Assembly: GCF_006345805.1 (NCBI RefSeq)
Contig: NC_043003.1
Coordinates: 4,960,001 to 5,024,000 of the forward strand
From: Octopus sinensis
Taxonomy: Eukaryota
DNA length: 64,000 bases
Reading direction: 5' to 3'
Made by a program: the position numbers and the translations under genes. Below are positions 3,776-59,034 of the stretch, one piece after another; position 1 is the first letter of the stretch, and the number at the start of each line of letters is the position of its first letter. Under the pieces are notes generated by a model. The model did not search any database. It was given only the letters and a program-made list of their open reading frames with translations, and was not told the DNA's origin.

Positions 3776-3963
3776 CCGTTGGCGATTTTTTCCCTCCGTC
3801 TTCCCTTCCTTGGATCTTTCCTTTTCCTATGTTTCTGATGAAGCGATCCGCTCGAAACGTTAAATCCTCCTTCTTTCTTTTCTTTCCTGAGCGTCCAATA
3901 ACGCTACTTGTTCCATGTCCTCGCGTTGTTGTGTTTTCTCTGTGATTTCATGTTTGGATTAAC

Positions 3964-3964
<1 letters not shown>
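3776..3964 (+). mobile_element. Short HHR-bearing repeat between microsatellites
   Basis: HHR-like motif at 3831-3865; 3' half recurs inverted at 40320-40408 and more decayed at about 43505-43600. Confidence 0.6.
3831..3865 (+). ncRNA. Minimal type I hammerhead ribozyme
   Basis: gttt CTGATGA agcg-atc-cgct c GAAA cg T T aaat: core boxes, stem II with one extra C, palindromic ACGT helix III, short helix I. Confidence 0.6.
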
Positions 3965-4009
<45 letters not shown>

Positions 4010-4780
4010 AAGATTAGATATTTATATATTTATTATATGACACAATAGCATTTGATTTGAGGAATATTTAGCTACAATGTTTTGCAAGTCGAGCGAATAC
4101 GGAGATTGTTTCGCGCATTTAGTATATATGACAGAGAAATACATTTCAAGAATATTTAACTATTATTTTTAGTGAATCGAGCTAATACGATTTTCATCGG
4201 CCTCCATAAGTGCCATAAACCTCTTGTGTTATTCACCAATTTTAGTATTTTGTAGGGAAAAATCTGTGTATTTAACATAAACATATTGCACTCATATTTA
4301 CCGAAGTTATTCTGTTCCTGTAATTATTCTCCAGATAGTTGCTAAGTATTCATCCTTCCAGCAAATTGTATTTATTAATACAGTTGGTTGCACTGCACTG
4401 TATTAGCATTCCTACACACACACAAGCGCGCGCACATACATACATGGACGGAAACACGAACGCATACGAACACAAACACACACACACACACACATACAAA
4501 TACGCACACAAACAAGTAATTCATTCATGACAACTACAGAAAAATGGAACCCAAAAGGAAACCACAAAAACATGACAAAATGATATTGGAAAATGAAACG
4601 GAGCCGACGTGGATGAGAAGCCGCCACTCTGATGGTTATCTATGGAGCACGGGTACAATATAAATAACAGTTCTCGCCTGAAGATTGCAGTGTGCATGTA
4701 TGTATGTATGTATGTATGTATGCCTGTGTATGCATACATGTTTGTTTATATGTTTATATATATATATATATATATATAAT

Positions 4781-5225
4781 AGAAATATTAAAATTACTAA
4801 GTCTCTCTAAAGGAGATTACGGCAGCGTTACTGGAAATTAATAGTTATCGCCATACGTATATGGCAGTCTTATAAATATAAGACTAAAGCTGTCGCTGAT
4901 TAGCTCCAAGAGGCCACCGCCTCAAGCTAGCTATTTGACACACAACCTGCGTTCATTATAAACCTTCGAACAGGGACAGTCAGTAGCGACACCTGCTGGG
5001 TCTCACTACGCTGCATTGATAAAGGGCAAATACCCTGAAACATGTCTGCAGCTGTCTGACTGGCAGGATGAAGCGGCTGACCTCCCCTCTTCGAAGGTTT
5101 ATAATGGACGCAGGTTGTGTGTCAAATAGCTAGCTTGAGGCGGTGGCCTCTTGGAGCTAATCGGCGACAGCTTTAGTCTTATATTTATAAGACTGCCATA
5201 TACGAATGGCGATAACTATTAATTT
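4781..5225. mobile_element. Foldback element with 136-bp inverted arms and central HHR, in a (TA)n tract
   Basis: Arms 4835-4970 and 5090-5225 (about 3 mismatches); unique extension 4781-4834; (TA)n on both sides. Confidence 0.85.
5010..5052 (+). ncRNA. Type I hammerhead ribozyme, U3:A8 core variant
   Basis: gctgca TTGATAA aggg-caaata-ccct GAAA catg TC tgcagc: 6-bp helix I, 4-bp stem II, palindromic helix III, GUC site at 5046. Confidence 0.8.
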
Positions 5226-5408
5226 ATATATATATATACTTAAGTATATATGCCTGTCTCTCGCTAGTGTTACAAACAAGAGTGCTTATACGCACCAAAA
5301 TCCTTATAAGAAGTTCTCTGGTGTTAATTATCGCAGTATTCTGTGTTCTAACACAATATCTACTTTTATGTGTGGATACATTATTACCTAAATAAATAAA
5401 TGTATATA

Positions 5409-5481
5409 TGGTGGTGCTATTAAGTTAGACATGGCCTGGGCCAATAATGGTGGAAACCTATCAAAGTATCAAAGTATCAAA

Positions 5482-5483: not shown

Positions 5484-5519
<36 letters not shown>

Positions 5520-5521
<2 letters not shown>

Positions 5522-5849
5522 CTTATAATTAAGGGCTAAAGAAGGTGATTCTAAAGCCAATACACTGATTTATCCACTTATAATCCACTTGTTACAGGAA
5601 AATTGAACTGATAGCGGGCAACTAACCTTGAAATTAAAATTTTCTAAAGGTTAGTTGCCCGCTTTCAGTTCATGTAACAAGTGGATTATAAGTGGATAAA
5701 TCAGTGTATTGGCTTTAGAATAACCTTCTTTAGCCCTTAATTATAAGATGTTTATACTTCAACCGTAAAGGTTTTTTTAATATACTGCCACGCTTTTTGA
5801 TGGAATCCCTTTCTGTAGAGAAAGGGACTTCATCCTATATTATTAGTAG

Positions 5850-5851: not shown

Positions 5852-5904
<53 letters not shown>

Positions 5905-5905
<1 letters not shown>

Positions 5906-7820
5906 TGAATTCAATTATCATTGTATCTCTAAGAAAGGAGGCGCTAGCCATCGATTACATCAACATTGAGGAAACAGAACCAGCGTCCATACATGAAATG
6001 AACTCATGCTCCGCAACTGGTCCTGATGGCTTCCTAGCTATTCTCCTGAAGTCACGTAAGCAGGCTTTAGCGAAACCACTTCAGATTCTTTTCCTAAATT
6101 TCCTTGCAACAGGTAAACTTTCTAAAAAGATAAAAGAAGGCATGATATGCCCTATTCACAAAGGTGGAAGCAGAGCAGAGGCCAAAAACTACAGGCCAAT
6201 CTCTCTGACTTCACATATCATTAAAGTCATGGAACACATCATCAGAAAAAAAGTTGATAATGTTCCTAGAAGAAAATGACCAACTGAACAATACGCAGCG
6301 TGGCTTCCGTCCAGGAAGAAGCTACCTCACGCAGCTCCTAGAGCACCTTGACTGGGTTTTGAAACATCTGCTTTTGAAACAGCAGCTTCACCTATCAGAT
6401 ATCATCGTTAGATACCTGACCTTGCAAAGAGATTTGGTATGGTAAATCATGGCATGATATGTCATAAGACAGAGACCATTGTTGGTAAACTGGAAGAGTG
6501 TCTTCATGATTCCCTTAAAGAGAGAAATCAGGCAATTGCAGCCAATGTTAGCCTTTCTGACTAAACTCAAATCCTTAGTGGCGTCCCTCAAGAAACTGTT
6601 CTGGGGTCATTATTGTTCATAATGGCTCGTGTAGACATGCCCACGGTAACTCGGACAGCCACTGTCACTAGCTATGCCAATAATACAAAATTATCACTGG
6701 CAGTAAAATATGAAAACGACGACGTAATCTTACAGATTTCGATATACAGATGGACCGGAATAAACAACATGCAGTTTAATGTGGGAAAAGGCGGCGAGCT
6801 GGCAGAAACGTTAGCACACCGGGCGAAATGCGGAGCCGTATTTCGTCTGCCGTTACGTTCTGAGTTCAAATACCGCCTTTCATCCTTTCGGGGTCGATAA
6901 ATTAAGTACCAGTTACGCACTGCGTTCGATGTACTCGACTTGATCTCTTTGTCTGTCCTTGTTTGTCCCCTCTATGTTTAGCCCCTTGTGGGTAATAAAG
7001 AAATAAATATGGGAAAATTTCAAGCACCACTATCAACTCGCGAATGCACTACAATCTGCATATACAGGACCCAAAGGCACTATAGTACCAGAGTCACAAG
7101 CAGTGAAAGACTTGGGGGATCAGAATGTGCAATGACGCATCATCTTATATGCACATTACCATGAAGGCAGCAAAAAGCATAGAACTGGTAGAATGGTTAC
7201 TGAGGTCCTTCAAGACAAGAGACGAAGAAATAAACTGTGGAGAACCTTTGTTCTCAGCCGCCTAGACTACTACTTCCAGTTATGGTCATCACATAGTGTC
7301 AAACTAACAGCGCAGTTCGAAGCATTTCAACGCCATTACACTAAACGTTTGAAACAGAGCAGCTGATGAGCTACAAGTATAGGCTGAGAAATCTGCAACT
7401 TTACTCCCTGGACCGAAGGCAAGAGATAAGCAATAATCTGCGAATGGAAAACTCTAGGTCTAGTACCTAATTTCGCCATTGCCTGTTATACAAATGCCAG
7501 AACTGGCCATTGTATTTTACCAAAAGTACCATCCACTCCATCTAAATTCAGGACTAAGTACTGCAATTGTCTAGGGATCAAATGCCCAGTTCTTCAATGC
7601 CCCTGCCACAAAAAATTAAGAAATCTGCATAAGGTGGAACAAGATGTCTGGGAAAAGGAACTAGACGTACTCTTCTCCACAACACCAGGTAAACCAACAG
7701 CTGGGACAAAGGCACATACAGGTGTGGGGGTGTGAAACACACCAGACTGAGGAGATCAGAAAGACAACGGTAATGCACCAGGAGGACTGCAGCCGCGTGG
7801 CTGAAACGAGTAAAAGAGTA
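5905..7820 (+). mobile_element. 5'-truncated decayed CR1-group LINE (reverse transcriptase), interrupted by a SINE
   Basis: SATGPDG, PIHKGGSRAEAKNYRPISLTS, GFRPGRS, GVPQ-like and YANNTK (YADD-like) motifs; frameshifts; tail ctgaaacgagtaaaagagta. Confidence 0.9.
6790..7005 (+). mobile_element. SINE family 1 (tRNA-derived, Meta-domain-like centre), near full length
   Basis: A box tggcagaaacg, B box gagttcaaat, gcctttcatcctttcggggtcgataaattaagtacc; TSD aat(g/a)tgggaaaa at 6778-6789 and 7006-7017. Confidence 0.9.
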
Positions 7821-8225: not shown

Positions 8226-8270
<45 letters not shown>

Positions 8271-8571: not shown

Positions 8572-9646
8572 ATATATCACTTATGATAAAAGGCAGATTT
8601 TCTCTGCCTCCCAAACCGTTCGTTTTTTATACAATTCTACAATATAGAATTTCTTCAATTGGAATTTACCTATCATTTTTACAAGTAGATTCCATCGGGT
8701 CGTGGCATGTAAAGTTTTTTCAATTTCACCCCCAATTAAGCAAAAATTCGAGAAAAGTAAATATTTTACGATTCCCCTCTTTCATTTCAAGTGCTTCACT
8801 CCTACCATTACCACTACACTTTCTCCTCCTTTCTCTTTGCAAGTGTGCTACAATTAAAGTGAAAGGATTTATATAAAAGGGATGAGCAATTAATACTGGT
8901 CATCCTTTTTGCTAGAAGAAGATCCGCTGTTGTCTTATATGCTACACCACTGGTTTTCATTTCATATTAATCAAATTAATATTCAATTTTTCACCCTTAT
9001 TATGTGTGTGTGTATTAGCAATTCGTATAAAATTGCATCAATGACTTGAACTTGAATAAGTGGTTTCACATAAATGGGGATACATTAAAAAGGTTTGTTG
9101 TTATTATTATTACTGTTTGACTATTGTAATCACGTTTGTTGGTTCCTCGTCAGGGAAACGTTGTTGTGTTGCATTTGTTAAATAATTGTAAATCGTAACC
9201 CTCCCCCTTTCGGAGAAGGGGCTTTGGTTATTGTTTTCAAATTGAATTGTGTCCCTGTTTGGGGAAATTGACAATATTTTCACCGCCTTTACGGAAGCAT
9301 TTTTGTTAAAATGCCTTCGATAGAAGAAAGTCCAAAAATGAATTTCGCTGCAGCCGTACACTTCTATACAAGAGTGGGGACAATATCCAATTGATCGAAA
9401 TTGCAAGAGACGGGCCTACAATTCCAGTCTGTTATATATTTTGAGTATTTTTATCACTAGCGATATCAAGATATAACTTTCTATTTTGTATTTTATGTGT
9501 AGATGTATATATATAGATGTGCATGTAATATGTACACATATATATATATACATATATACATGCATAATATATCTACCCATACACACACGTACACACACAC
9601 ACATACATAGGGGCAGGTGTGGCTGTGTGGTAAAAAACTACGTTCG

Positions 9647-10960
9647 AAGATACTGTACTTGATATGGGCGGTAGCGCCTTGCCGGTCTATGGCCTACCTT
9701 CAACAAACCGGGAAGGCACAAACACTCTGTCTTCACATTTGCTGCGTGAGACATGTTTTAATGTTGACGAGCTTGCCGAGTACATAGCCGACAATGAGCC
9801 AAAGCTCCCTCCAGAACAGAAGTTCGCTTACAACTCCGTTGTTAATTCAGTCCGGGCTAAAGCTGTGGGGATATTTTTCCTGAACGCTCCTGGGGGCACT
9901 GGGAAAACTTTTCTCAACAAATTAATATTGGCTGAGATTAGGCGAACACAAGGCATTACCCTAGCTGTGGCATCATCTGGAATTGCGGCTACTTTGTTGC
10001 CAGGCGGCAGGACAGCTCACTCCACTTTTAAGCTTCCGCTTGACTTAGCGAAGACTGAGACCCCAACTTGCAACATCAGTAACAGCTCCGATCAGGCAGA
10101 AGTCTTCAGACGATGCAAGCTTATCGTTTGGGATGAATGCACGATGGCCCACAGAGGTGCTATTGAGGCATTAGATAGATCTCTGAGAGACATCAAACAC
10201 TCTTCAGCTCCCATAGGAGGCATAACACTTCTTCTTTCAGGGGACTTCCGACAAACACTTCCCGTTATTCCCAAAGGGACTAGAACTGATGCAGTAAGTG
10301 CGTGTCTTAAGTCATCCACATTGTGGCCACTGGTGAAGACTCTCAAACTTCACACCAATATGCGTGCTCATATGCGACGTAATATCACATCAGCAGCATT
10401 TTCTCACTCATACCCTCCTTGCACTTGGCGAAGGCAAAATACCAGGGGATGAAAATGGTAATATTGCCATCGATTCCATTTGTACCATTGTTAAAACGCC
10501 TTCTGATCTCAGAGATGCAGTGTTCCCAGATCTACAAGCTAATTATCATAATATGGATTGGATTGGCCAAAGGGCTATTCTGGCCCCGAGGAATAAAACT
10601 GTTCACCATATTAATGATGAAATGCTAAAACTCATTCCTGGGGATGTCTATGTATATAAGTCTATCGATACAACTCCTGACCCAGAGGACGTCATCAACT
10701 ATCCAATAGAGGTACTCAATTCCTTTGAGCCCCCCGGACTACCACCACACATTCTCAAACTTAAAGTTGGTGCCCCTATAATGCTCATTAGAAATTTGGT
10801 TCCCCCAAAACAATGCAATGGTACACGTTTGATCGTTAAGTCCTTATCTCCCACCGTAAACTTATATCAATATTTGCCTGAATAATCATCATAATTCAGT
10901 GCAATCATTAACAGTACTTTCAAGCAATTCAGCCCCGAGCATCGCCGGGAAAATCTGCTA

Positions 10961-11010: not shown

Positions 11011-11013
<3 letters not shown>

Positions 11014-11330
11014 TTGATAGGGAAGACAGCGTACTGTGAGCTTTATTTAGTACGACGATCGTTTCGGCTTTCATCTGCACTGCTGGTGAGTGAAGAACGA
11101 TATAATGGAATCGAATACAATCCACATTGCAGAAGAAACCTCATCAGGTTACATAATAATACGCTAAATGTAGCGTATTATATCAGGTGATGAGTCTTCT
11201 TCTGTATTGTGAAGTACATTCGGTTCCATTGTATCGTTCCCCACCCACTAGGTAGGAATGCAGATGTAAGTCGAAAAGATTGTCCTGCTAAATAAAGTTT
11301 ACAGTACACTCTGCCTTCCCTATCACTTAT
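11011..11330. mobile_element. Diverged foldback element with an HHR in each arm
   Basis: Arms about 11015-11166 and 11171-11325, roughly 75-80% identical; centre taatacgcta-aatg-tagcgtatta; AATAAA downstream of each HHR. Confidence 0.8.
11050..11152 (-). ncRNA. Hammerhead ribozyme with long stem II
   Basis: Minus strand: CTGATGA ggtttcttctgca...tgcagatgaaagcc GAAA cgatcg TC. Confidence 0.7.
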
Positions 11331-12529
11331 TTAAAATATAATAGACGTGTCCTTATTACACCTCGAAGTAGGAATCCTTCTCGACTAATTCTCGGATTTC
11401 GAAATCTGTATACCAATTAATGCAAGAATCCTAAAAAAAAAAGATTCCTAAGATTTCACTGGACATTTTGTCACTAAAACACGATAACACTACTACTAAC
11501 TAAACTAGCGTCAAACTGCTTATTATTATACCTACTACTACTACTGCTGCTGCTGCTGATGATGATATAGTGGTGGTAATACTGGTTTTGCTGCTGTTGT
11601 TGGTGGTGATGTTGAAGAATTCGGCGGTGATGATGAGGATGATTATGATGATCATGATGATAAAACAAATAGAAAAGAAGAAGAAGAGAAGACTTAAAGA
11701 GGACAAAAATGATGAGACAAGATGAGAGAAAAAAAGCAAAGCAAAGAAATGACAAAGTATTAAAAAACCGCAAAAATCAGAAGAATTTGACGAAAGAAGA
11801 TGAAGAGGTTGTAATATCGTTTTGTGAATGTCATTTTATTCCATTCAACGCATTCTTCGTCTAAATTTCCGTAAAGTCTGCTAATACTATTGATGTATTT
11901 CAAATTGCAATAATAATAATAATAATAAAGTAGAGATTAAATTGAAAATGGGAATTAGATGGAAAATAATGAAAAAAAATAGAGACAATTTCAAGAAACT
12001 AAGAAGAAATTTAAACACGAAATTTGTTGAATTGAAAAACACCAGAGCAATAGAGGAATTAGGGGAAACATTTCTCAATTCCACTTTATGACCCATTCTA
12101 CGTAATTATCCATTCTTCAAATTCCAATATTTGTTGATATTTCTTCAAAAAAAATCTCTTTCTCTTTTATAAACTTTCATCTCTCTAATGATAAAAAAAA
12201 GACAACCAAAAAATTCGCACTCAATTTTATTGCTTTTGTTTCTAATTTTCGGATATTTTCTTCATATCTTTCTCATCAAGTTTTCTTTAAAATTATATTT
12301 TGATTTCATTGTATTTTTTTTTTTGTATTTTATATTTCGTATTCTTGGTAGAACAGTTTTTTTTTTCTCTCTCAATTGAGATATTATTTAAACATTTTGG
12401 TTTATGTTTGCTCCGTTAAACACTGAAAATGGCCTCTTCATTTTCGCCTATTGTTTCTCCGTTAATCTCTTTGAGAGATCGGTCGCTTTATTGGCAAGCA
12501 CAACAACAAACACACTGGCCAGCGAATGT

Positions 12530-14379: not shown

Positions 14380-15156
14380 GAAATAAAAGACTGGAAATTT
14401 GGTATATCCTAAAAGTGGCGAGAAGTCTTTTCTGGAGAGAGTACTATTGGAAATTGAGAAATGTCTGCATCAGTCTCATGAAAAGGAGAGAGCAAATAAA
14501 GAAGCTTGGGTTATAGAAAATATCAAGTCAAACCCTGAAGCTTTCTTTAAGTTTGCCAAAGAAACAGCCTCAATACGCCACATGATAGGACTCCACGTCC
14601 AGAAGATGGCTCCCTTACAGGAAACCCTATATGGATAAGTGAAATACTGAACGTGCAGATCATTACACCGCTGGGACACGGACAGGTGAACGAACCAGCA
14701 GAATTCTTTACCATTTTACCTGTAATCGAAGAGGCAAAAATTGAGTACATGAACATTGAAGGTGTAACACTGGCCATAGATGAAGTCGACACAAACTCAG
14801 CTGCTGGCCCCGATAGATATCCAATGATCCTTCTCAAATCATGCAAGCGAGCCCTTGAAAAACCATTGCAGCTTCTTTTTCAGAGCTCCCTTGGAAGCGG
14901 TAAGCTCCCAGACAGACTGAAGGAAGGGATAATATGCCCTTTCTATAATGGAGGAATCAGAGCAGACGCTAAAAATTATAGGCGGAAAACTTGAAAGAGT
15001 GGCTGCATGACTTTCTAAAAGAAAGACGTCAGGCAGTGGTGCCAGTGAAGCCACCTCTACGGAAGCACAAATAGCAAGTGGAGTTCCACTATCTTGGGGC
15101 CACTGCTATTGATAGTGGTCCTCTCAGACAAGCTCTCAGCTGCTCAGATAGCCACA

Positions 15157-15192
<36 letters not shown>

Positions 15193-16182
15193 CGATGGGC
15201 TTCTTTCAGTTTCCGTCTACATAATCCACTCACAAGGCTTTGATCGACCCTATGCAGATAGCACAAAAGCCTCTCAGACAATACAAAATCCTGGAAATCT
15301 GCACGTCTACAACGGTCGTTGGATGCAATACAGAGGTGGACTAAGTACAACAAATCGCAGTTTAATGCAGGAAAATTCCAGACCCTCCGCTACCAGCACA
15401 CAAAGCTAAACGACATGCAGACAGGATACACAGGCCCAGGAGAAACTGAAATCCTCGAATCAAAATCAGTGCATGACCTGGGCATTGACATGAGGAATGA
15501 TTCATCTTTCCAATTACATATTGCCAATTTGGTAATAAAATGCAGACGGCTGGCTCCTCTGAAATTTCAAAACGAGTGAAAAGGAGATATTAATGATCCT
15601 TTGGAGAATATATTTCCTCAGCCGCTTGGACCACTGCTCCCAGCTATGGTCATCACACAATATAAAATTGACGGTGGAAATCGAAGCAATCCAATGAAGC
15701 TACACTAAGAAAATCGTCTCGATGCAACATGGTAAAGACTTAAAGACTTAAAACTCTGCTCGTTGGAACGACGGCGGGAGAGATATGCAGTGATATACAT
15801 CTGGAAAATCCTACAAGGCCATGTACCAAACTTTGGCATTGAAAGTTATTCAAACTGCAGAACGGGGCGCCACTGCCTAGTGCCAAGGATCCCAGCATCG
15901 CCATCAAAATACAGAACCAGATACTGCAACAGCTTGGACTTCAAGGTCTTACAGCTCTTCAATATCCTTCCAAAATGCTTGAGAGACCTGCGTGGTGTGG
16001 ATGTGTCTGTAAAACAACACTGTCAAGTGTTCCAGATGAGCAGGAAACACAGATGAGGGTAGCGGCAGCAAACTCCCTTATTGACCAAATGCCACATATC
16101 AGAGGAGGTTTCAAATAATGGTGTATCTCATTCAACAGTGGTGCTCCAGTATGACCGCAGCTTTGCAACTGAAACATTAAAA
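14380..16182 (+). mobile_element. Decayed CR1-group LINE with internal deletion
   Basis: NIKSNPEAFFKFAK, SAAGPD, KNYR joined directly to the WLHDFLKERRQ region, QFNAGKFQ, ERRRERY, LFNILPK; 3' tail ggtgctccagtatgaccgcag...ctgaaac. Confidence 0.9.
15158..15250 (-). mobile_element. SINE family 2 internal fragment inside the LINE
   Basis: acgatgggcttctttcagtttccgtctac...ccactcacaaggctttg matches 27630-27690 inverted. Confidence 0.75.
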
Positions 16183-22286: not shown

Positions 22287-22497
22287 TGTGAAATAGAAAG
22301 ATGAATAATCTTGTAGTGGATAATCAAAAGTTTAACCGATACCTTAGTAGCAAAAATCACAGCAGTGAACAGCACGGTTGGAGGTACAACCATCTGGCGT
22401 TGCAACCGTGCGTTGGTGCGGATAATTGAAATTAAAACATATTGGTGAATTGAAGAAATGGAGCTGAACGCAGATTGAACAGAAATCGTTTATTTCA

Positions 22498-22577
22498 TTC
22501 TACACGTGTTTCGAAAGGCACAAATTACCAAAATCCGATTGAATAATGGGACCATATTGTGTCTTTCTCTTCAGGAA
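22498..22577 (-). ncRNA. Type I hammerhead ribozyme (mirror copy)
   Basis: Reverse complement of 22741-22820. Confidence 0.8.
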
Positions 22578-22740
22578 GAAAAAAGGAAATCCGTTGGAAA
22601 AACAAAAACAGAACAGAGGCAGAGCAAAAAACAAATCGAACTGTGCTCCTAAGAGCCCATGGCTCTTAGGAGCACAGTTCGATTTGTTTTTTGCTCTGCC
22701 TCTGTTCTGTTTTTGTTTTTCCAACGGATTTCCTTTTTTC

Positions 22741-22820
22741 TTCCTGAAGAGAAAGACACAATATGGTCCCATTATTCAATCGGATTTTGGTAATTTGTGC
22801 CTTTCGAAACACGTGTAGAA
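22741..22820 (+). ncRNA. Type I hammerhead ribozyme with long stem II
   Basis: ttc CTGAAGA gaaagacacaa...ttgtgcctttc GAAA cacgtg TA gaa; AATAAA at 22824. Confidence 0.8.
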
Positions 22821-22902
22821 TGAAATAAAACGATTTCTGTTCAATCTGCGTTCAGCTCCATTTCTTCAATTCACCAATAATATATATATATATATGTATA
22901 TT

Positions 22903-23050
22903 TGAGTAGTTGAATGAATTATCTTATCAAGGGTAATTCGGTTAACCGATACCTGGGTAGCAAATTCACGTCAGAAAAACACGGTTGAAGCTACATGCCT
23001 AGGGCAGAGATCACATCCTTTCATGTGGGAATTTGTGTGTTTTTTATCTG
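22903..23050 (-). mobile_element. Solo terminal extension of the foldback family
   Basis: ttaaccgatacctgggtagcaaattcac shared with 41945-42095 and 22330-22360; orientation inferred from the HHR strand in relatives. Confidence 0.7.
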
Positions 23051-30455: not shown

Positions 30456-32147
30456 ATATGAAGAAAAAGAAGCAGCCACAATTTTGGACAATAATTATTA
30501 GCGCTTTCGTTCAGTTTTCGAACTCAAGACAAAATCAAAATTGTAAAAACAGATTTCATTGTTCTTTTATATGAATCGGATGTTTTTTTTTTATTTTGGC
30601 GGAGGAGAATATTATTTTTGTTTTGAAAAAAAAGGGGAGAGTGAGAGAAAGAAAAGCAAAGAGGCGGGGAATAGAGAGAAATGATCATATATATATATAT
30701 ATATATATAGGGATTTTGACAACTGTTGTTCTTATAGAACTTACATATACCTGAGAAAGAATACTAGAACCATTTTACCACTGATTAGGAAAGATATCTA
30801 ATGTAGCTACTTGGCAAAGTAATTCGTGAAAAGATCCCTATTGAATTTTCTTATCCAAGCAAGCAAGAAAAAGAAAAATAGATCCTACAAAAGGAGAAAA
30901 GATAGTAAAAAAAAAAACATTTAAGCAGGCCCTGCTTTATCATATAATCTATATTGTACAGAGTAGCTTCCAGCTAAATATACGTGCAAAACTCATTTAT
31001 GAGCTTTGATTAAATGTACTCGGAGAATAGATTGAATTAGAAACAGTACCAGAATACTTTTTAAAATGCTGACTTTATTTTCCTAATTTATGAATATTGT
31101 ACTAATATTTAATGTTTGTTCATGCATAACATAGAATTACACAGAATATGGAACTTGGCTATACAAATGTAAAGGAATATACATTTTCATAAGGGCGCTT
31201 TTTAAATTTTTCAGTGATAGCCGCACTCTTCTCCATTTTCTTATTTCTTTCATTCTATTTCCCAAAATTGACATTTTTGAAAGGTCACCAGGCCTTGTGA
31301 GAAAATGTGTTTAGTCACAATTATGTCGACAGGTATATAACAGAAAGAAAAAAGAAACGAGAAAGAAAAAAGAAATATGCTTGGAAATGAAATTTTTATG
31401 AATTGACCACATCAAAATGGAACAGAAAGCTTTCTCCCTCTCTATCTATGCTTTCTCACCCTTTTTTATTATTTTTTCTCCTCTTTCGTGGCTGTCCTAA
31501 AACCTCCCTCTCTCTCTCTATCCATTTCCCTCTCTTTACTTCTCTCTCTCTCTCTCCTATTTTAAAAAAATGCAGAAACAATATTCTCCTCTTCTGAACA
31601 AAGCAAAAACGCATCCGATTCATGTAAAAGAACAACGAAATGTTCCGTCTTTAACATTTTGATTTTGTCTTGGCGAGGTCAAAAACCGAACTCAAGCGCT
31701 AATAAAGGATTATCCAGAATTCTGACTGTCCCCTTTTTCCCATTATTCAATATCTGTACCCCACTTCAAACATTATGTTTTGCAAACAACTTGCACATGC
31801 AAGTGCAACTAGTGGTGACCTCCGCATACAAGAAGACAACAAGTGTATGAGGTCATCCGCGGAAAAAGCGCACCGTTTCAGGGCCTACCTCTCGACAGCA
31901 TGAATGCACACCACCCAACCTACAACTGATATGAGGCCCCGCTTGCTAGATCAGCTGGTTATTAAATAAAGCTCAATATTCTTCTAGCCATCGCTCAGCG
32001 TCTCTTTTTAACCAAATGCAGTCGATAGATATATGGAGGGATCGATAGATAGATATGTGTATATATATATATATATATATAATTTTAAGACAGATATTCC
32101 GGAGGCATCGATACAGACGCCTCGTGTATATTTGTCTCTCCCAGGTT

Positions 32148-32245
32148 TTTTACTGATGAAGTGTGACCTATGGTAGATTAGCTTAATTTAATTTAATTAA
32201 GCTAATTTAATCATTAATAACACAGAAACGATGCATCGTCTAAAA
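32148..32245 (+). ncRNA. Type I hammerhead ribozyme, copy 1
   Basis: tttta CTGATGA agtgt...acaca GAAA cgatgcatcg TC taaaa; predicted cut after 32240. Confidence 0.8.
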
Positions 32246-32620
32246 GTTGAATTAGGGTAAATGTTTTTAAATTTTCACCTAATTTCTGAATTACTACTAC
32301 TTGGCGGTGTGAGTTATGGCTGCTCTTTCTGGTGGACGAATGGCCTGTTAAGGGTCACTCCTAAATTGTTATATTTATATATTTAGTCTTTGACTATTTT
32401 CTCTTTTCCACTAGGCCGCTGGTAGCGATAAATTCTATTGAATTTTTTGCTACCCTAAATTGACTAATTGATAATTTTCTGAATAATTCTGAGATTGAAT
32501 CGGCAGTTTATATTTACTGCTGATAAGTTTGGCGCGAATACGTCGGTCTTGAAAATTTTAAGACAGATATTCCGGAGGCATCGATACAGACGCCTCGTGT
32601 ATATTTGTCTCTCCCAGGTT

Positions 32621-32718
32621 TTTTACTGATGAAGTGTGACCTATGGTAGATTAGCTTAATTTAATTTAATTAAGCTAATTTAATCATTAATAACACAGAA
32701 ACGATGCATCGTCTAAAA
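32621..32718 (+). ncRNA. Type I hammerhead ribozyme, copy 2
   Basis: Identical to copy 1; predicted cut after 32713. Confidence 0.8.
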
Positions 32719-32935
32719 GTTGAATTAGGGTAAATGTTTTTAAATTTTCACCTAATTTCTGAATTACTACTACTTGGCGGTGTGAGTTATGGCTGCTCTT
32801 TCTGGTGGACGAATGGCCTGTTAAGGGTCACTCCTAAATTGTTATATTTATATTTAGTCTTTGACTATTTTCTCTTTTCCACTAGGCCGCTGGTAGCGAT
32901 AAATTTCTATTGAATTTTTTGCTACCCTAAATTGA

Positions 32936-33012
<77 letters not shown>

Positions 33013-40463: not shown

Positions 40464-40464
<1 letters not shown>

Positions 40465-40834
40465 TTAAATATAAGAGAGTTACCGCTAAGTGGTTAACTC
40501 TAGTGCTAAAAATAGCTCCTTTTATGATTTATAGATAAATATGTGAGTAAAATTGCATATTATATTAATAACGAAACAATTGTTCGGCGTTAATCTATTT
40601 TTTCATTGTATTTCACTTTCCTTACGTTGAATGTAATGTTATTTCTTATTGGAAACAACCTTTGGTGGCTATACCAGAAAAAGGAGCTATTTTTAGCACT
40701 AGAGTTAACCACTTAACGGTAACTCTCTTATATTTAGGTATAAATTTGTATTGTCTCCCTGGTTTTTTATGTGCTAAGCCACTTGGTGTTAAAACTGATG
40801 GTATTATTAACTTAATATCTAATTTTTCACCCTC

Positions 40835-40838
<4 letters not shown>
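40464..40838. mobile_element. Foldback element with 58-bp arms and right extension, in (TA)n
   Basis: Arms 40466-40523 and 40679-40736; spacer holds an HHR 3' half GAAACAATTGTT at 40573-40584. Confidence 0.8.
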
Positions 40839-41947: not shown

Positions 41948-42238
41948 AGAAGGTGAATGAATTATCCTAGTATGGATAATTCGGTTAACCGATACCTGGG
42001 TAGCAAATTCATGTCAGAAAACTCGGTTGAATCTATATGCCAAGGGCAGGGATCCCGTGTTCTCGTGTGTGTAAATTTGTGTGTGTTTTTTTAACTATGA
42101 ATAAATGAAAGAATGGAGTTCGAAACGACGATTTTAACAAAATTCCTCGGAATTAGGAATACAGCCTTCGAAACATGTGTCGAGAGTAAAGGAATTTTGT
42201 TAAAATCGTCGTTCGACAGCATTCTTTCATTATTCATA
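41945..42238. mobile_element. Foldback element with left extension, in (TA)n
   Basis: Arms 42096-42147 and 42190-42238; HHR 3' half cGAAACATGTGTC at 42169-42181; extension homologous to 22903-23050. Confidence 0.8.
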
Positions 42239-46268: not shown

Positions 46269-46357
46269 GTGCAGCTGAAGATTGCTCTACATTTTAAATT
46301 GATGTAATGATTGCATTGTTCAATTAAAAAGAGTTGCATGAAACGATCGTACTGCAC
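46269..46357 (+). ncRNA. Type I hammerhead ribozyme with long stem II
   Basis: gtgcag CTGAAGA ttgctct...agagttgcat GAAA cgatcg TA ctgcac; perfect 6-bp helix I; element ends at (TA)n near 46390. Confidence 0.75.
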
Positions 46358-46557
46358 TAACTCTGGATATCCTTGTTGCTTATTTTGATATATATATATA
46401 TATATATTGGTAATTAGAAAGGGATTTCTCTAGAACGTTAACCGGTTTGCTCACAGGTATTAAAAATACGTTTAGAATATAAATCTAGTAATAATTCCCA
46501 TAAAATAAGAATTGAGAGATGCATTCCGTTGGATAATTTTGAATATATTGCGTTTAA

Positions 46558-46905
46558 CAGTTCTATATCTAAGAATTGAGGAATTGTGTTCATTATTTAC
46601 ATTTGACGGGTATTTGTGCTTATCTTGTTTGTTAACACAACGTTTCGGCTGATATACCCTCCCGCCTTCATCAGGTGTCTTGGGGAAATTTCGAACCTGG
46701 ATTCTCATTCCTAAGGTATTTTTCGATGATATTATTATCATTATTATTATTATTATTATTCAGGTCACTGCTTGGAACTGAACTCGGATTCTTGGGATTA
46801 ATAGCCCGCGCTCTTAACCACTATGCCATATGCCAGTGGGCAACCGAAAAGTTGTGTTAACAACAAACAAAATGAGGACAAACATCCGTCAAATGTAAAT
46901 AATGT
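46558..46905 (-). mobile_element. tRNA-headed SINE-like element with HHR and an inverted 3' fragment
   Basis: Head 46834-46761 (tggcatagtgg A box, gagttcagttcc B box), (AAT)n linker, HHR 46678-46635, inverted arm 46843-46903. Confidence 0.82.
46635..46678 (-). ncRNA. Minimal type I hammerhead ribozyme
   Basis: acac CTGATGA a ggc...gcc GAAA cg T T gtgt. Confidence 0.75.
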
Positions 46906-47339
46906 AAATAAGTTACCTTTAATCATTTAGGTTTCCTGGAGTATATATTATCAATAATAATGATACGTATTATTACGAAGTTGAATAGCATTACTTTTAT
47001 TTCCTTTTTATATACATCCAGTTTTACATAGACCTACACATGTTTCAAATGTACCGATTAGGGACCGTTGAATTTGCAGCCCTTCTATGATACCGATGCA
47101 GCTTCTTCACGGTCTTCACTTCAATATCCTTCGATTTAACTGTTTAAGGTTTTTCGGTTGTCCGCTCTGCGTTGTACGATGTGGAGTTGTTCGTTAATTC
47201 ATACTTGGACTATCTTCAGTTCAAGTTTTGATATGATGATCACTTATAGCCCATTATTTCAAAACATTCTGTTCTTTAAATATTTATTACGCATTTATAC
47301 CGAGCAAAGGTGAATATTCTCATGTACAAATGTCTTCCA

Positions 47340-47705
47340 TCTTTAAATGTAAACTTTGGTAAACTTCTTCTGTATATAGGTCACATTTCTGAGAGTGCAA
47401 CTGCACCAATTTTCAAGAAGAGACTAGCTAATCACTTAAGTTCATTTCGAGATAAAAATAAACGATTCCAAACAAGTGTGCGTAAACTAATGTGGTCCAT
47501 TGAAGACAGAAACAAAGACAGTACAATCAATACGGAATTAATTAGTGCTGCAAAACCACACAGAGTTGGAACTAATAAATGTGACCTGTCTTTAAAAGAA
47601 TTTTACTTAATGTTTACATCTAAGGGCAATATAAGGAATTCTAAACAGAAACAAGCTTTAAGATGCTTGCACATGAGAAAATTCACCTTTGCTCAGTGTA
47701 AGTGA
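47340..47705 (+). pseudogene. PLE GIY-YIG endonuclease C-terminal fragment
   Basis: YIG...FKKRLANH..SFR...T..RKLMW...AKP...CDL.LKE...N...RCLHMRKF pattern typical of PLE endonucleases; no RT upstream. Confidence 0.8.
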
Positions 47706-47880
47706 GTAATAAACATTTAAAGAACAGAATATTTTGAAATAACGAGCTATAAGTGACTATCCAATCAAAACTTGAATTGAAGATAGTTCGCCTCTAAATT
47801 AACGAACAACTCTATATCATACGACGCAGAATTGATAAACGAAGAACTTTAGACAGTTAAATCAAAGGATATTAAAATAA

Positions 47881-47966
47881 AGAGCCTGAAGAATTTGCGT
47901 CAGTATTAGAGGAGAGTTGCAGTTGCAAAGGTTGTTAATCGATGCAATTGAAACATGTGTAGGTCT
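47881..47966 (+). ncRNA. pLTR hammerhead with long stem II (partly decayed)
   Basis: agagc CTGAAGA atttgcgtc...gatgcaatt GAAA catgtg TA ggtct; mirror copy at about 47028-47114. Confidence 0.65.
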
Positions 47967-48093
47967 GTGTGAAGCTGTATATGTAAAAGGGAAATAAAAG
48001 TAATGCTATGCAACTTCGTAATAATCTTTATTATACATATATGCATATAGTATGTATACATATCCAGATATATGTTTGTGTAATTGTGTGTGA

Positions 48094-50417: not shown

Positions 50418-50746
50418 ATATTGTTATATTTCGGAATGGTCATTTTGCCAGTTTAGCCAATAAAAACACACGCACTATATATTTGGTGTTACTTTGCTTC
50501 AGTGTTATTTATTTTTTACATTAATCTTAATCTTATTTCGGCCAGAGTTCTTTCGTCATACGCCTGCGACCGCATCAGTGGTCCTTTGTTTTCTTCTCAC
50601 TTATTTGTGTCTCTCCTTACTAACCGTCAGCCATTTTGCGTGTGTTTTTATTGGCTAAACTGGCAAAATGACCATTCCGAAATATAACAATATCTGTTTC
50701 AACACACGACTTCACATAAAAAATCTTGCACAACAAATATTTAAAC
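50418..50746. mobile_element. Foldback element with perfect 57-bp arms, minus-strand HHR-like motif and right extension
   Basis: Arms 50418-50474 and 50637-50693; minus 50581-50542: cca CTGATGC g gtc...gac GAAA gaac TC tgg. Confidence 0.82.
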
Positions 50747-51484
50747 GTATATATATATATACATATCTATATACATACATATATATACATATCTATATAA
50801 ATACATATATATATACATATCTATATACATACATATATATACATATCTATATACATACATATATATACATATCTATATACATACATATATATACATATCT
50901 ATATACATACATATATATATACATATCTATATACATACATATATATACATATCTATATACATACATATATATATACATATATATATACACACACATATAT
51001 ATATATACATATATATACATATACATATATATATATACATATCTATATACATATATATATATATATATATACATGTCTATATACATATATATATACATAT
51101 GTACATTTTTCTCAATTAAGTTTGTATTTTCATTATTTGGTTATTTAAACTGTCTCCCAAACTAATTATTTAGCAACAAGACATATAATTGCTTCTAGTT
51201 ACTCTGCTAATCTGTTTGAATAATTGAAGTTCCACAAGTGTTATGCAAAATTAATGCCGTGTATTTTAGCTCTTTCTTCTATATTGCCAAAGTTAAGTTA
51301 CCAACTTGCTCTATGGAATATTTCTGCTTCTGTTTGTCTCTCCTACTTCTTTAAGTTTTTAGAATTATATTTTGTTTTATAGTTCCTACATTTTGTACGC
51401 TTATAGAGCAAGAATCGTAATACATACACGTATATGAGTTTGGGTGGGTGTATATATATATGTGTGTGTTTGCGTGTATATATA

Positions 51485-52514: not shown

Positions 52515-53020
52515 ATATAAACTTAGATAAACTTAGATATGTTTCGACCAAAGATTGGTCCAGGCCATGTCTAACTTAATAGCACCACCTGATAGGATTA
52601 TTCGAATCCTGTTTAAGTCAAGTTTTGTTTATGGTCCATTCAAGTAGTGAGTTTTTGTTGGGTGAGTTGTATCCAATTATGGGTGGCTTATCTGGTATTG
52701 CTTGAAGGAATCTATCCAGACTCCGTTTAAAGTTGATGGGATCCTTTTCCTCTTTGATCTCTTTCGGGACAATGTTAAATAGGGCAGGGCCTGTTGAGGA
52801 AAAGAAATTATGTTGCAGTGTACATGTATGCTGTGATCTTGAATTGGGCAGGGGACGTATGGCCCGTGGTCCCAGTCTTGGATGAACCTTGAAGCTAATG
52901 TTCAGGTCGTTTGGGCAAAGTTGGCGGTATATTCTCCACATCGTACAAATGATGTACCGCTCACGGCGATGCTGGAGAGAGTAAGGCTTTAAGGCGATCC
53001 CAATAATCGAGAGCAGCCAT
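52515..53020 (-). mobile_element. CR1-group LINE 3' end
   Basis: YSLQHRRERYII, GPALFNIVPKEIK, FKRSLDRFLQAIPD.P; tail of repeated atctaagttt. Confidence 0.9.
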
Positions 53021-53908
53021 GCCTATTTATATATGTATATATATATGTGTGTGTGTGTGTATATCTATCTCTCTCTTTATATATATATATATATAATACT
53101 GAAGGATTTTAGTTTTGGCATGATGGTTGGCTTTATTGCGAAAATAGTCTGTTAAACAACCAATAGCGAAACACCCCTGATTGCATCAGAAAAATGTTCA
53201 CAATTTCTTCAAGCAATTGGTGTTCCCAATAACGACTGACACTCCTCTACGAAAAATGCAATATATTGCCCTCAACCTCTTCGGCTATTTGTATTCCCCT
53301 CACAGCAATGCTAACGAAATACTTAATTTTCTCCATCGACACAGCATTTTAACAGGTCTATAATTTACAACCTGATTCTCAAATTTCAACTAATGAGCAG
53401 ATCTTCGGAACTGAATACTAATACAGCAATGTGGATTTATTCAGAAGTGAGTAGAAGGACATCTTTTCTTTTCTTTATATAATCTAGGAAAAACTCCTCA
53501 TCTCCGTTCAATAGAATCTCCGCTCAATGTCATAGCCTCTACACCTTTCGCTCAAAACTTTATGCTTTTATAAGACTTTTCTTTAGATATGAATAACATG
53601 ATATTTATAAAAAAAGCTGTCAAACTTGTCTACTCTTCTAGCGAAATCTTCAATTATGAGCTATTTTGCTTTCTCTAAATCCTTTAAAAATAAAAAAAAA
53701 CAACAGCAACCCAGAATTCACACAAGAAAGATCAGAATAATACAAGTAACCCACCAAACAATAAAACCTGTAACTTGAGAAAGTCTATGAATGTTATTTC
53801 TTTTCCGTTTCATGCTGTAGCGTATAAATTTAGAATATTTATTTGGTATAAGGTCAGCATTGCGAGGGGTTAAGGAAACACCTTTGCAACTGAAAATGTT
53901 TATATTAC

Positions 53909-55075: not shown

Positions 55076-55101
55076 AATAATAATAATAATAATAATAATA
55101 A

Positions 55102-58075
55102 TAGAAAAAGAGGAAAGTAGACGGACAGATGGAGACATGGTGGAAGCGCAGAATTGAAGGCGATATTTTAACTTTGCGTAAAGATCTGAACCGCATAAAA
55201 GAGCGGTCCAAAGGGCAATGGAAAACCGGAAAAATAAAATGCAACTGCATATCTGGACGTGAAGTACCAAATAGAAACGAAAGTGTTCAAAACTATCATC
55301 GAAACCCTAAAATATTAAAGGTGCAGCGCTACACTGATCGCATGTCGCAGTTCCAGCAAAACTGGTTTTACTCAAATAATCAGAGGCAGTTTTTGTAAGG
55401 GCTTAGGGAGAAATACAGAAGATAATACACCTCCTGAAGTAGAAGAAACCCGCAAAATTTGGGATAACATCTTGGGGAGAGAGGTTTCGCATAAGCACTG
55501 TGCTGAGTGGGTCCGTTCTGTGAGATCCGAACTCCATCTATCGGAGGCTCCACGAGAGGACCACGTGAGCATACCAACGGAAGATATAATTGCACAGATA
55601 TTAAAAGTGCCAAACTGGAAAGTGGCAGGACCAGACGGAATTCAAGGCTATGGGCTGGAGTCGTTTGGGTCAATACGCGAGTATTGCGTTGCAATTAGAC
55701 AATTGCTTACAGAGCCGTGCAGATCCTGCGTTAATGAAAGATCGATCAAAGAGCAATGAGGTTCGCAATTACCAATAAATTGCTTGACTTAACTCTCTAT
55801 GGAAAGTATTAACAGGTACTCTCCCAGGGAAAAGATATACACTCCTTGCGGAAAACAATCTGTTGCCAGTAGAACAAAAGGGTGCCGAAAAGGATCCAAG
55901 GGTACCAAGATGTGGGAACTACGGAAGTCAAACATAAAGATTATCCCTATTGTCATCGGAGCGTTGGGTTCAATACCACCCAATCTGAAAAAAACATCTG
56001 AAAACTTTAGAAATACCCTACAACCCAGATGTATTGCAGAAGTCGGCATTACTTGGAACTGCACCCATATTGCGTAAAGTAGTCTGTCTGAGGTCTTTGT
56101 TGTGACTTGAAACCCCCGGTAGACACAATGTCTTCAATCAACAACCTCACCATTTCGAATGCTGTGCGACGTCTATGATGATAATAATAATGATAAGACG
56201 TTATAATGAAGAACTGTAAACGGTATCCCCAAATACTAATGCATGGACTGGATAGACTTCAAAAAGGCTTACGATATGTTGCCGCATTCGTGGATTTTGG
56301 AAACACTCGACATGTGTGGAATAGTTGAGAACATATGTGCCCTGATAATGAACAGCATGCCTAGTTGATAAACACGTCTTTCCTGTAACAACCAGCACTT
56401 AGCCGAGATAACAATCAAAAGAGGTATCTTCCAAGGAGACTCTTCTTCACCTCTGTTATTTGTTATAGCCTTCATGCCACTTTCTGTAGTCCTACGCATA
56501 ATCAACATGCACTATGAGCTGAGAAAGAATGGACCCCGTCTCAATCCCGTTCTCTCCGTGGATGATTTAAAACTGTTCGCAAAAACAGAGCCTGAAATGA
56601 AGAGGCTGGTTGAGAGTGTGCAAATATGTAGCAAGGATATAAGGATGGAATTCGGTATCTCGAAGTGTGCGGTGTTTACTTTGAAGCGGAGGAAAAGCGA
56701 AAATCGCAGGGGTATAGAATTGCCAAACGGAGAGAGAATGGAAGATCTGGATGATGATGGGTACAAGTACTTCGGGATCCAGGGGCTGGACAATATCTTG
56801 CATAAAGAAATGAAAGACAAGGTCATCACTGCATATTTTAAGCGCCTCAAACTCCTCTTGAAATCAAAATTGAACTCAAGGAAACTTGTGACTGCCATCA
56901 ACAAATGGGCTGTTGCTGGAGTCCGCTATAGTGAACCCATTCTGAGATGGACACAAGCGGAGGTTGACCAACTCGATCACACTACCCGAAAGACAATGAC
57001 AATATATAGTGCCCTCCACCCTAAGGTAAATGTACACAGGCTCTGCCTTAGAGTACGGGAGTGCATCAACATTGAAAGAAAAACATGGTAGAATGTTTGG
57101 TATACAGCAAAAAAGAACTACTACAGTATGCTGCTAGTGCCGAAGGAATTAACAAAAATGGACCTGAGAAGAGTGCTCATGAATTTCGATCAAGAATAGC
57201 CAACGAGAGAGACGAAACCCTACGCCGTATGGAATTACATAGTTAGAATCTCTGCGAAACCAAAGAATTAAAAGACCAGGAAGCGTCATGGAGGTGGCTC
57301 ATCAAAGGTGACCTAAAAATGAATGCTGAAAACATAATCATCGCTCCCCAGGAATTAAATACCCATTCAGCAGCAAAGAATATATATACCACACAAGTGC
57401 ACCAGATCTCTGCAAAATGAGTGAGAAGAGGGTCGAAAGCGTGAATCACATTGTTAGAGCTTGGGAAAGACTTGCGCAGAAAGAGTACAAGCATAGACAT
57501 GACAAGGTAGTCCAAAACCTCCACTGGCTACTATGCTGTAAGTATTGATATGAGGTTAGGGGTTCTTGGTACCAACATATACCGGAAAAGATAATGGATG
57601 AAAAGGGGAAGACAAAAATCCCCAGGGACTTTTGATTTCCAGGTAGGCAGGGTGTTAGAGCACCGAAGGCCGGATAATAGTAACCTTTAGGAGGGACAAA
57701 ATAAGATTGCCTAATAATTGACGTAGCAGTGCCAGGAGATCAACATATTATGAAAGAAAGAGAAAAGGTTGATAAATAAGGAGACCAGAGAATTGAGATC
57801 TCTAAGATGTGGCAGCTACGAGAGTCAAACATAAAGATTATCCCTATTGTCATCGGAGCATTGCGTTCAATACCTCCCAATCTGAAAAAAACATCTGAAA
57901 ACCGTAGAAATACCCTACAATCCAGATGTATTGCAGAAGTCGGCATTACTTGGAACTGCACTCATATTGCGTAAAGTAGTCCGTCTGAGGTCCTTGTTGT
58001 GACTTGACAAACCCCGGTAGACACAATTTCTTCAATCAACAATCTCACCATTCCGTATGCTGTGCGACGTCTATG
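55102..58075 (+). mobile_element. Decayed Dong/R4-clade LINE (RT, zinc knuckle region, RLE) in (AAT)n
   Basis: WWKRRIEGDI, NWKVAGPDGIQG, EQKGCRKGSKGT, WIDFKKAYD, GIFQGDSSSPLLF, VDDLKLFA, YKHRHDKV, RPD, KIIPIVIGAL. Confidence 0.92.
55907..56192 (+). mobile_element. Extra copy of the same element's 3' end nested in the RT region
   Basis: About 90% match to 57804-58085, with its own (GAT)(AAT) tail. Confidence 0.85.
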
Positions 58076-58112
58076 ATGATGATAATAATAATAATCATAA
58101 TAATAATAATAA

Positions 58113-58467
58113 TTGGGGGACAGTCGATTACATCGACCCCAATACTCAACTGGTACTTAATGTATCGACTCCAAAAGGATGAAAGGCAAAGCCGACTTCG
58201 GCGGTATTTGTACCCAGAGAGTAGCGGTAGACGAAACACCGCTAAACATTTCGCTCAGCGCGCTAACAATTTGTCAGATTGCCGCCTTAATAATAATAAT
58301 AATGGTGATAATGATTTAAAGTTTGGCTCTGGTACTTATTTTATCGCCCCCAGAAAGGATGAATGTTAAAGACGACGTCTGCAGAATATGGACTTAGAAC
58401 GTGAATTCAGATGAAATACTGCTAAGCATATCGCTCGGCGTGCTAACGATTCTGCTAGCTCACCGCT
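58113..58467 (-). mobile_element. Two adjacent SINE family 1 copies (58113-58286 and 58329-58467)
   Basis: Both carry inverted Meta-like centre and head sequences; (AAT)n between and around them. Confidence 0.8.
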
Positions 58468-58522
<55 letters not shown>

Positions 58523-58633
58523 TAATATATTCCTCAAACCATTTCGAATGGTTAACAGATGCTCTTTTCTGTTTTCGGTTTTTCGTTTGTTTTACCCCTG
58601 TTAACCATTCGAAATGGTCTGAGGAATATATTA
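58523..58633. repeat. Small foldback with 36-bp arms, flanked by (AAT)n and (ATT)n
   Basis: Arms 58523-58558 and 58598-58633. Confidence 0.8.
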
Positions 58634-58994
58634 TTATTATTATTATTATTATTATACATATAACATTTAATCCAGAAACTTTGAGCAAATAGACAAGAAC
58701 ACAGAATGACATAAGAAAGGATTGTTATACAAAAAGGTCCTGGCCGCTATACAGTGGATTCTCGCATACGTAAGATCGCAGGTTGAAATACATGAATTAG
58801 TTTCGATTACCCGTCCAACAAAAGACAATATATATATTATACGACAACGAATTCTAAAAAAACAGAAAAAGGATTTTTAAAAAATTAATTCAATGAAGAT
58901 ATCTCCAACAACAAAACAACAAGAGCCACTCGGAGTTTTGGAACATAAAGATAACCGAATTAGAAACCGATCGTCAAACTGAACCAGCTGGAAC

Positions 58995-59034
58995 AAAATA
59001 CATGTTTCAACCTCGTTGGTGTTCATCAGTGAGC
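58995..59034 (-). ncRNA. Minimal hammerhead-like motif (helix I decayed)
   Basis: Minus strand: ca CTGATGA acacc-aacga-ggtt GAAA catg TA tttt. Confidence 0.5.

Follow-up and report, generated by a model that had tools for sequence, protein, structure and literature searches.

What kind of mobile DNA leaves short inserts made of two inverted arms, with an extension on one arm only, inside (TA)n runs? This question is raised by a 64-kb stretch of the Octopus sinensis genome (contig NC_043003.1, positions 4960001-5024000; here called the window, with coordinates counted from its first base), which is rich in (TA)n and in which microsatellites dominate unmasked repeat finding. At least seven such inserts, most of them with a hammerhead ribozyme (HHR), had been interpreted from the letters of the window (the original prediction) as non-autonomous fold-back elements derived from Penelope-like elements (PLEs). 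Analysis of the window and of the 2.72-Gb assembly assigned the inserts to repeat families; every mapped family has two fixed outer ends, and its two-armed insertions pair one of each, with junctions that vary from copy to copy and TA at the flanks. The inserts are 5'-truncated two-armed copies of coding PLEs and of short HHR repeats in (TA)n, probably written by a PLE enzyme that would nick both strands of the target and prime one complementary DNA (cDNA) at each of two start sites on the RNA. The fold-back itself is a product and not the mobile unit.

Two fixed outer ends and their pairing

Inverted pairs were sought by self-BLAST of the window after microsatellite masking, and a local pair was found at all seven sites of the original prediction. 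Families were lettered by window site (A, 4781; B, 5520; C, 11011; D, 22287; E, 40464; F, 41945; G, 50418), to which an eighth inverted pair, family H (46969-47329/47667-48025), and family R (32082) were added. For each family, the best 40 of 263-2524 candidates in the assembly were scored, and the counts given below describe this sample of the most similar copies. Refetched loci (numbered with the prefix L) were removed as duplicates, 13 of them in family D and L096, L109, L111-L113, L167, L199-L201, L203 and L243 elsewhere.

The predicted extension of one arm was recovered as a tail of 54-155 nt in the six end-mapped listed families (A, B, D, E, F and G), while family C is eroded. The tail end is called T, and the second fixed outer end, 54-155 nt upstream of T, is called S. 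Among 114 loci (families A, B, E, F, G and R, counting the copies in the window), 82 were two-armed with one T and one S end, one was T+T and none was S+S; the rest consisted of 10 loci with one unclassifiable end, 20 one-armed loci (13 with T, 7 with S) and one complex locus. Overall, T+S pairing was found in 82/83 two-armed insertions with defined ends, plus 31/31 in the coding family D. The queries for families E and R were neutral to end type, and here 25/26 were T+S (p=4e-7 against 0.5). TA adjoined 154 of the 176 defined ends in the same six families. The junctions between the arms fell into 9-17 distinct 10-nt bins per family; the 15 G junctions displayed differ base by base, and those of B and F cluster at palindromes.

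In the window, (TA)4 or longer lies at most 10 nt from both ends of the inserts at 4781, 22287, 40464, 41945 and 50418 and from one end of those at 5520 and 11011, as had been predicted. Both ends of the R insert and neither end of H are placed likewise. As a background, 2.2% of unmasked and 11.2% of all window positions lie within this distance of a TA run.

Coding families, family F and two old families

The absence of an open reading frame, which was part of the original prediction, applies to the window copies but not to the families of the inserts at 22287 (D) and 50418 (G). The D insert (22287..22879) is an extreme 5'-truncated two-armed copy of a young 3646-nt PLE. Its tailed arm (22287-22666, minus strand) and tail-less arm (22660-22879, plus strand) carry HHRs at 22574-22501 (minus) and 22744-22817 (plus). 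From 1057 candidates, the best 40 that were scored were all 99-100% identical, and copies of 99% identity run on into a frame with reverse transcriptase (RT) and GIY-YIG domains. The 3646-nt unit occurs head to tail in L066, where RT and then a C-terminal GIY-YIG domain are found in one 625-aa frame without an N-terminal endonuclease; the full frame was broken in every copy examined. By eye, the motifs of the protein correspond one by one to those of Hydra-1_Obim, including DKT (SDKTRN, frame of L061), CxxC (CNLC) and CxH (CPH), with no CCHH, and RWL stands where Hydra-1_Obim has RWK. On this motif match family D likely belongs to the Hydra clade, with one feature of the clade not seen. The HHR is present in 29/29 D loci.

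All tail ends of 36 distinct D insertions adjoin TA. An inverted arm was parsed in 33 insertions, and in 31 of these it ends 148-156 nt from the tail end, in all 31 cases adjoining TA. The two exceptions are L061, which was mis-parsed by the script (156 on direct inspection), and L077, with a 40-nt inversion. Arm lengths range from <200 nt to 3.6 kb, and the window copy is of the shortest kind. The junctions are symmetric within 15 nt in 14/33 insertions (permutation mean 1.7, maximum 8 in 10,000), many of them at palindromes; the inverted arm is longer in 5/33 and the tailed arm in 14/33. At asymmetric junctions 6/18 showed an overlap of at least 4 nt against 1.7% at random, a hand count that BLAST overlaps may overstate. 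Contigs of other sequencing runs also show TA joined at both D end sites (loose ends 311 and 3791). In a search made with one family, no run recorded as RNA was found. In L061 (4040-4330), two full-length D copies stand head to head with a small nested junction of tail pieces.

Family F (window copy 41948..42238) shares the tail and the HHR type with D (73% over 88 nt). Its window copy has a D-related tail of 146-151 nt and keeps the HHR 3' half alone (42170-42181), and a solo F tail fragment lies at 22895..23050 (minus), matching F at 86% and the tail of D at 79% over 57 nt.

The G insert (50420..50748) consists of a tail-less arm (50420-50638, minus) and a tailed arm (50637-50748). Copies of this family run on into a 377-aa frame (L185) with a C-terminal GIY-YIG domain, a CX4CxxC linker and, by eye, CCHH, and by these motifs, judged by eye, it is a coding Neptune-like PLE. 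The frame was matched by 6/24 loci, with one unrelated match pair set aside. The window copy carries a variant HHR-like fold (50578-50545, minus) with the core CUGAUGC (C for A9), which was found in 25/27 matches (L170-L194).

Two further families, H and C, are old. Family H (46969..48073, plus; right end approximate) is the 3' end of an old Hydra-like PLE with an inverted arm at 46969-47329; between its arms the end of a GIY-YIG frame is kept (C-terminal frame 47280-47705), a degenerate HHR lies at 47886-47961, and 151 genome matches were found. The C insert (11011..11335, minus; 70-85% identity, outer ends unmapped) is two-armed and carries an HHR-like fold with a helix II of ~75 nt and a bulged helix I (11147-11054, minus); 7/14 anchors of this family keep the HHR core ~77 nt upstream.

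Non-coding hammerhead units and their arrays

Four families consist of non-coding tandem units, 365 nt long in A, 486 in B, 497 in E and 473 in R; their longest stop-free frame is 44-79 aa and their G+C content 31-42%. No match to a PLE protein was found in the A, B or E loci. The A insert (4781..5225, plus) has a tailed arm at 4781-4983 (minus; tail 4781-4834), a tail-less arm at 4964-5225 and an HHR at 5016-5046 with a U3-A8 core, which is present in 23/23 matches of the family. The B insert (5520..5841, plus; tail 5748-5841) is truncated ahead of the HHR, as the arms measure 219-220 nt and the cut site of the family is situated 230 nt from the end; 11/21 B loci have the ribozyme. Of the E insert (40464..40836, plus; tail ~40752-40836) only the HHR 3' half remains (40573-40584), the first core bases being lost at the junction (~40521), while the HHR is found in 12/16 E loci. 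The R insert (32082..32940, plus), which had no entry in the original prediction, is a one-armed tandem of 1.8 copies flanked by (TA)n runs, with HHRs at 32153-32240 and 32626-32713. The HHR core was detected in 89/102 R units. The helix III of this family, a palindrome of 12 nt, comes in two versions (81 and 4 units) set apart by a compensatory pair. As short low-GC tandem units, each with one predicted type I HHR, A, B, E and R fit non-LTR (long terminal repeat) retrozymes. The predicted HHR cut lies 233 (A), 230 (B), 217 (D), 251 (E), 204 (F) and 227 nt (R) from the tail end, a range of 204-251 nt in mostly unrelated families, and 182 nt in G.

Among the 19 R arrays analysed, 17 are two-armed, with up to ~4+12 units. 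By substitutions, units of one arm diverge by 0.64%, units on opposite arms by 0.70% and units of different arrays by 1.6% (all 20 arrays picked, plus the window). Thirty-two variants are array-wide (19 on both arms), 70 are private and 8 are common to unit subsets, with none in mirror position. No trend of divergence with distance was found (rho 0.007, p 0.91, n=278), and only 4/22 shared-variant pairs were between adjacent units, the noise of a long-read assembly limiting the power of this variant analysis. Four of the 17 junctions are symmetric. This uniformity fits copying from one uniform template at insertion, whether a circle or a uniform linear multimer. Arm starts do not gather at the HHR cut (1/34 R inner ends, and none of the parsed D inverted arms at 217), and since the R inner ends do not gather there, cleaved linear monomers are unlikely templates.

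The original prediction had counted about 15 HHR-like motifs in the window. Complete folds are indeed enriched: a strict descriptor found 3 cores against a mean of 0.29 in 100 shuffles, and a relaxed one found 9 complete folds against a mean of 0.585 and a maximum of 3 in 200 shuffles, although this descriptor was tuned after the motifs had been seen and was run on the unmasked window and masked shuffles. One of the nine (48459) is probably a chance match, and a number near 15 is reached only when variants and halves are counted. Such halves (GAAA plus a palindrome) were not enriched in the window, either overall (37 against 28.5; 5/100 shuffles as high) or with palindromes of at least 6 nt (11 against 8.2; 20/100 shuffles as high). 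An HHR or HHR half had been described for most inserts; the one at 5520 has none, and those at 40464 and 41945 keep only a truncated HHR. Helix III, described as palindromic, is not so in families B and F. Dimeric cleavage, which the original prediction had linked to this palindrome, is impossible between the two arms on one transcript because the two HHRs sit on opposite strands. Minimum free energy folding reached significance in only 1/6 HHRs, and among the 150 of 612 Rfam matches that were listed, microRNA-like hairpins, all below the gathering score, and no hammerhead family occurred. At 59029 (minus), an HHR core with a palindromic helix III and without helix I is a doubtful ribozyme.

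Proposed mechanism and alternative explanations

The model starts with a GIY-YIG/RT protein, probably a dimer, that would cut the TA run. One target strand would prime at T and the other at S; both cDNAs would stop early, and repair would link the two ends in head-to-head orientation, frequently where a palindrome or microhomology is present. Non-coding units would borrow the PLE protein in trans, and multi-unit arms would be made at insertion from a uniform template, which may be a circular monomer or an uncleaved uniform multimer. Symmetric junctions could result from both enzymes reaching the same RNA 5' end, or from snap-back. In a more far-reaching and tentative version, the PLE RT dimer may obligately prime two strands at different start sites of one RNA and, on a circular retrozyme monomer, roll round in both arms, writing inverted multimer arrays (up to ~15 units) in one insertion.

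Several points weigh against the two-start model. The arms had been expected to match PLE 3' ends. Only F resembles D, and for A, B, E and R no coding PLE partner with the same end sequence was found; for this reason the evidence for trans-mobilisation is the shared insertion signature. The PLE frames had no significant Pfam match, and the CxCX5C linker of Hydra elements was not visible in the Ser-rich linker of the D protein, while the H fragment of the window begins too far along the frame to show it. The queries for A, B, D, F and G included the tail, which disfavours S+S in these families, though not T+T, and locus L095 of family A may be S+S with an eroded end. The 20 R arrays, of which 19 were kept, were picked from the match table with long and inverted ones favoured, and one of them, L231 (C5:70773000-70780900), is T+T with a 4-unit periodic variant pattern that suggests local duplication. 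In family A, junctions recur (203/316 three times, 193/316 five times). The 14 symmetric D junctions are also predicted by snap-back.

These symmetric junctions, many at palindromes, together with those in R and the palindromic junctions of B and F, could point to one priming event after which the cDNA folds back or switches template to make the inverted arm. Snap-back of a tailed cDNA cannot yield the D pattern, because the inverted arm is the longer one in 5/33 and the tail is on one arm only; moreover, S and T ends each occur alone in one-armed copies, and a snap-back copy would need to halt at the fixed S in every family, so that single priming is judged decidedly unlikely. If the two arms were made at insertion and the multi-unit arms grew later by unequal crossover, as proposed for retrozyme arrays (10.64898/2026.07.22.740005), the periodic variants of L231 and the variants common to unit subsets would be accounted for. 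Such later growth is unlikely for the arrays as a whole, given the lack of a distance-divergence trend, the equal uniformity of both arms and the few adjacent shared-variant pairs, within the limits set by assembly noise.

The idea that the short fold-backs are themselves mobile and copied whole from master fold-backs, which is how the original prediction saw them, is very improbable. Best matches do span whole fold-backs in A, B, F and G, but these whole-length matches were selected by the query; identical junctions do recur in A, but the recurring one sits on a 10-20-nt inverted repeat and is found in copies that carry the tail on one or the other arm and hold 0-2 additional units. Junctions are copy-specific, all different in G, and two of the seven inserts come from coding PLE families, D and G, which have full-length members. 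The predicted relation to PLEs, with two 3' ends head to head, was borne out, as was the exclusion of DNA-transposon miniature inverted-repeat transposable elements (MITEs). An origin from MITEs with long terminal inverted repeats at TA would agree with the inverted arms, short length, missing reading frame and TA flanks, yet it is scarcely credible when the ends are not mirror images (tail on one arm), the internal length runs from 0 to >3 kb, tandem and one-armed copies are common, and the full-length members encode RT and GIY-YIG and no transposase. Neither identical terminal inverted repeats nor a uniform length was found, and any target-site duplication would be unreadable inside (TA)n. 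Near-perfect palindromes such as 22440-22879 (98.9%) and indel-rich copies could suggest assembly artefacts of hairpin-adapter long reads; this has a negligible probability, as the flanks show no duplication, the arms in seven families end at two fixed positions, the arms of old copies are only 75-85% alike, and other runs carry the same TA junctions.

Comparison with known systems

In twin priming of the L1 retrotransposon, both target strands prime cDNA and an inverted 5' part is joined by microhomology; annealing of the second primer is internal and at no constant site, and the arms cover separate stretches. In the octopus insertions, by contrast, the second start lies at a constant position, and the two arms are copies of one sequence.

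The following comparisons refer to the available text of the cited papers. PLEs are known for inverted truncated copies with a 30-40-bp tail, often at one end, and for Hydra elements with HHRs in (TA)n, including Octopus (PMC8557442). Compared with Hydra-clade PLEs (Craig et al. 2021, PMC8557442; Hydra-1_Obim), family D has the same C-terminal GIY-YIG, DKT, CxxC and CxH motifs, no CCHH, an HHR near the 3' end, (TA)n targeting, an inverted 5'-truncated copy and a one-sided tail. It differs in its length of 3.65 kb (Hydra elements are generally <3 kb), in RWL for RWK, in a long Ser-rich linker without a visible CxCX5C, in a tail of 147-155 nt against the 30-40 bp of PLEs, and in an HHR with a 55-nt helix II region, and represents another family than Hydra-1_Obim (PMC8557442). 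The Poseidon PLE of Anolis cuts and extends both strands in vitro, HHR cleavage being unneeded and a dimer predicted; two neighbouring sites on the RNA, at which its RT begins, set the limits of the tail, and its targets are AT-rich (Frangieh et al. 2024, PMC11167929). It differs from the present families in that the two strands were not seen to differ in start site, with no pairing of starts reported for genomic inverted insertions in that text, and the start sites are 30-40 nt apart against 54-155 nt here (PMC11167929). For O. vulgaris, 31 recently active Penelope-like families are listed (PMC13282606).

Non-LTR retrozymes (Cervera and de la Pena 2020, PMC7229834; Li et al. 2026, 10.64898/2026.07.22.740005) resemble A, B, E and R as non-coding tandem units with one type I HHR each and a G+C content of 31-42%, found as dimers to multimers. 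The octopus units are at or above the stated range (365-497 nt against 150-450 bp), and their arrays have two arms, which end in (TA)n at T and S sites of the PLE type. A word search of the available text returned 'inverted' 0 times in PMC7229834 and once in 10.64898/2026.07.22.740005, and 'tail' 0 times in the latter. The minimal HHRs of truncated PLEs (Cervera and de la Pena 2014, PMC4209133) are similar in occurring as dual HHRs 100-700 bp apart on opposite strands, and in the U3-A8 core variant, an unpaired base before stem II and a palindromic helix III. Window HHRs differ from these by a helix II often of 40-80 nt and a helix III of up to 12 nt, and the CUGAUGC core of G was not met in the available text of that paper (PMC4209133).

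The original prediction left it undecided whether this class had been described. The architecture is largely known. Truncated copies in inverted orientation have been published, as have tails on one side only, HHRs and insertion into (TA)n (PMC8557442, PMC4209133), and the elements listed for Octopus bimaculoides include a Hydra PLE that carries an HHR and targets (TA)n. What the present analysis adds is the rule that T pairs with S and its application to arrays of retrozymes; no report of this rule or of two-armed retrozyme arrays was found in the literature covered, outside which lay subscription journals and Repbase.

Other features of the window and genome

A SINE-like (short interspersed element) repeat with 4453 candidates is present at 46545..46916 (minus) and 26372-26513 and was also seen in L245-L259. 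By eye its head resembles a tRNA; it also contains an (AAT)n stretch and, towards the 3' end, a minimal HHR (terminal in the first window copy, core 46674). Several copies, including the one at 46545..46916, have short inverted 5' arms; two 3' end points were seen, and the repeat lies away from (TA)n. ARAGORN detected no tRNA in 10 loci of the family, which is possibly a SINE mobilised by a PLE. An isolated minimal HHR belonging to another repeat family is located at 3835..3862 (plus) and an isolated complete HHR upstream of a (TA)n run at 46275..46351 (plus). Further unrelated complete HHRs with a long helix II occur in the flanks of L049, L083, L086, L090, L092, L095, L099, L141, L144, L150, L174, L177, L178, L185, L190 and L198; so many unrelated HHRs in flanking DNA imply that the diversity of HHRs in this genome is large.

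A small fold-back with 31-nt arms lies inside a (TAA)n run (58528-58628), and an old inverted pair (77%) is found at 30463-30620 and 31573-31739, 952 nt apart. Directly left of insert C, fragments of a PIF1-like helicase (9634-10885; PF05970, E 6.5e-65) are probably a Helitron remnant. Decayed RT fragments resembling those of long interspersed elements (LINEs) occur at 5904-7740, 14551-16056, 52618-53022 and 55319-57091 (PF00078, E 9e-7 for 56372-57088).

Implications for Penelope-like elements and retrozymes

The origin of the inverted repeats and one-sided tails of PLEs is stated as open (PMC8557442), as is the question of what mobilises animal retrozymes (10.64898/2026.07.22.740005), and the copying of circles by PLEs has been put forward as a hypothesis only (PMC7229834). 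With the T+S rule, and with a coding family and non-coding arrays that are both young and share one genome, the two open questions become directly testable. Repeats of this kind are prone to mis-annotation as MITEs or microRNA hairpins. If a PLE dimer does roll on circular RNA, the arrays would be the trace left in an animal genome by rolling-circle reverse transcription and by PLEs mobilising retrozymes. Two-strand copying by one enzyme, which is the likely reading of the inserts, would explain the spread of ribozyme repeats.

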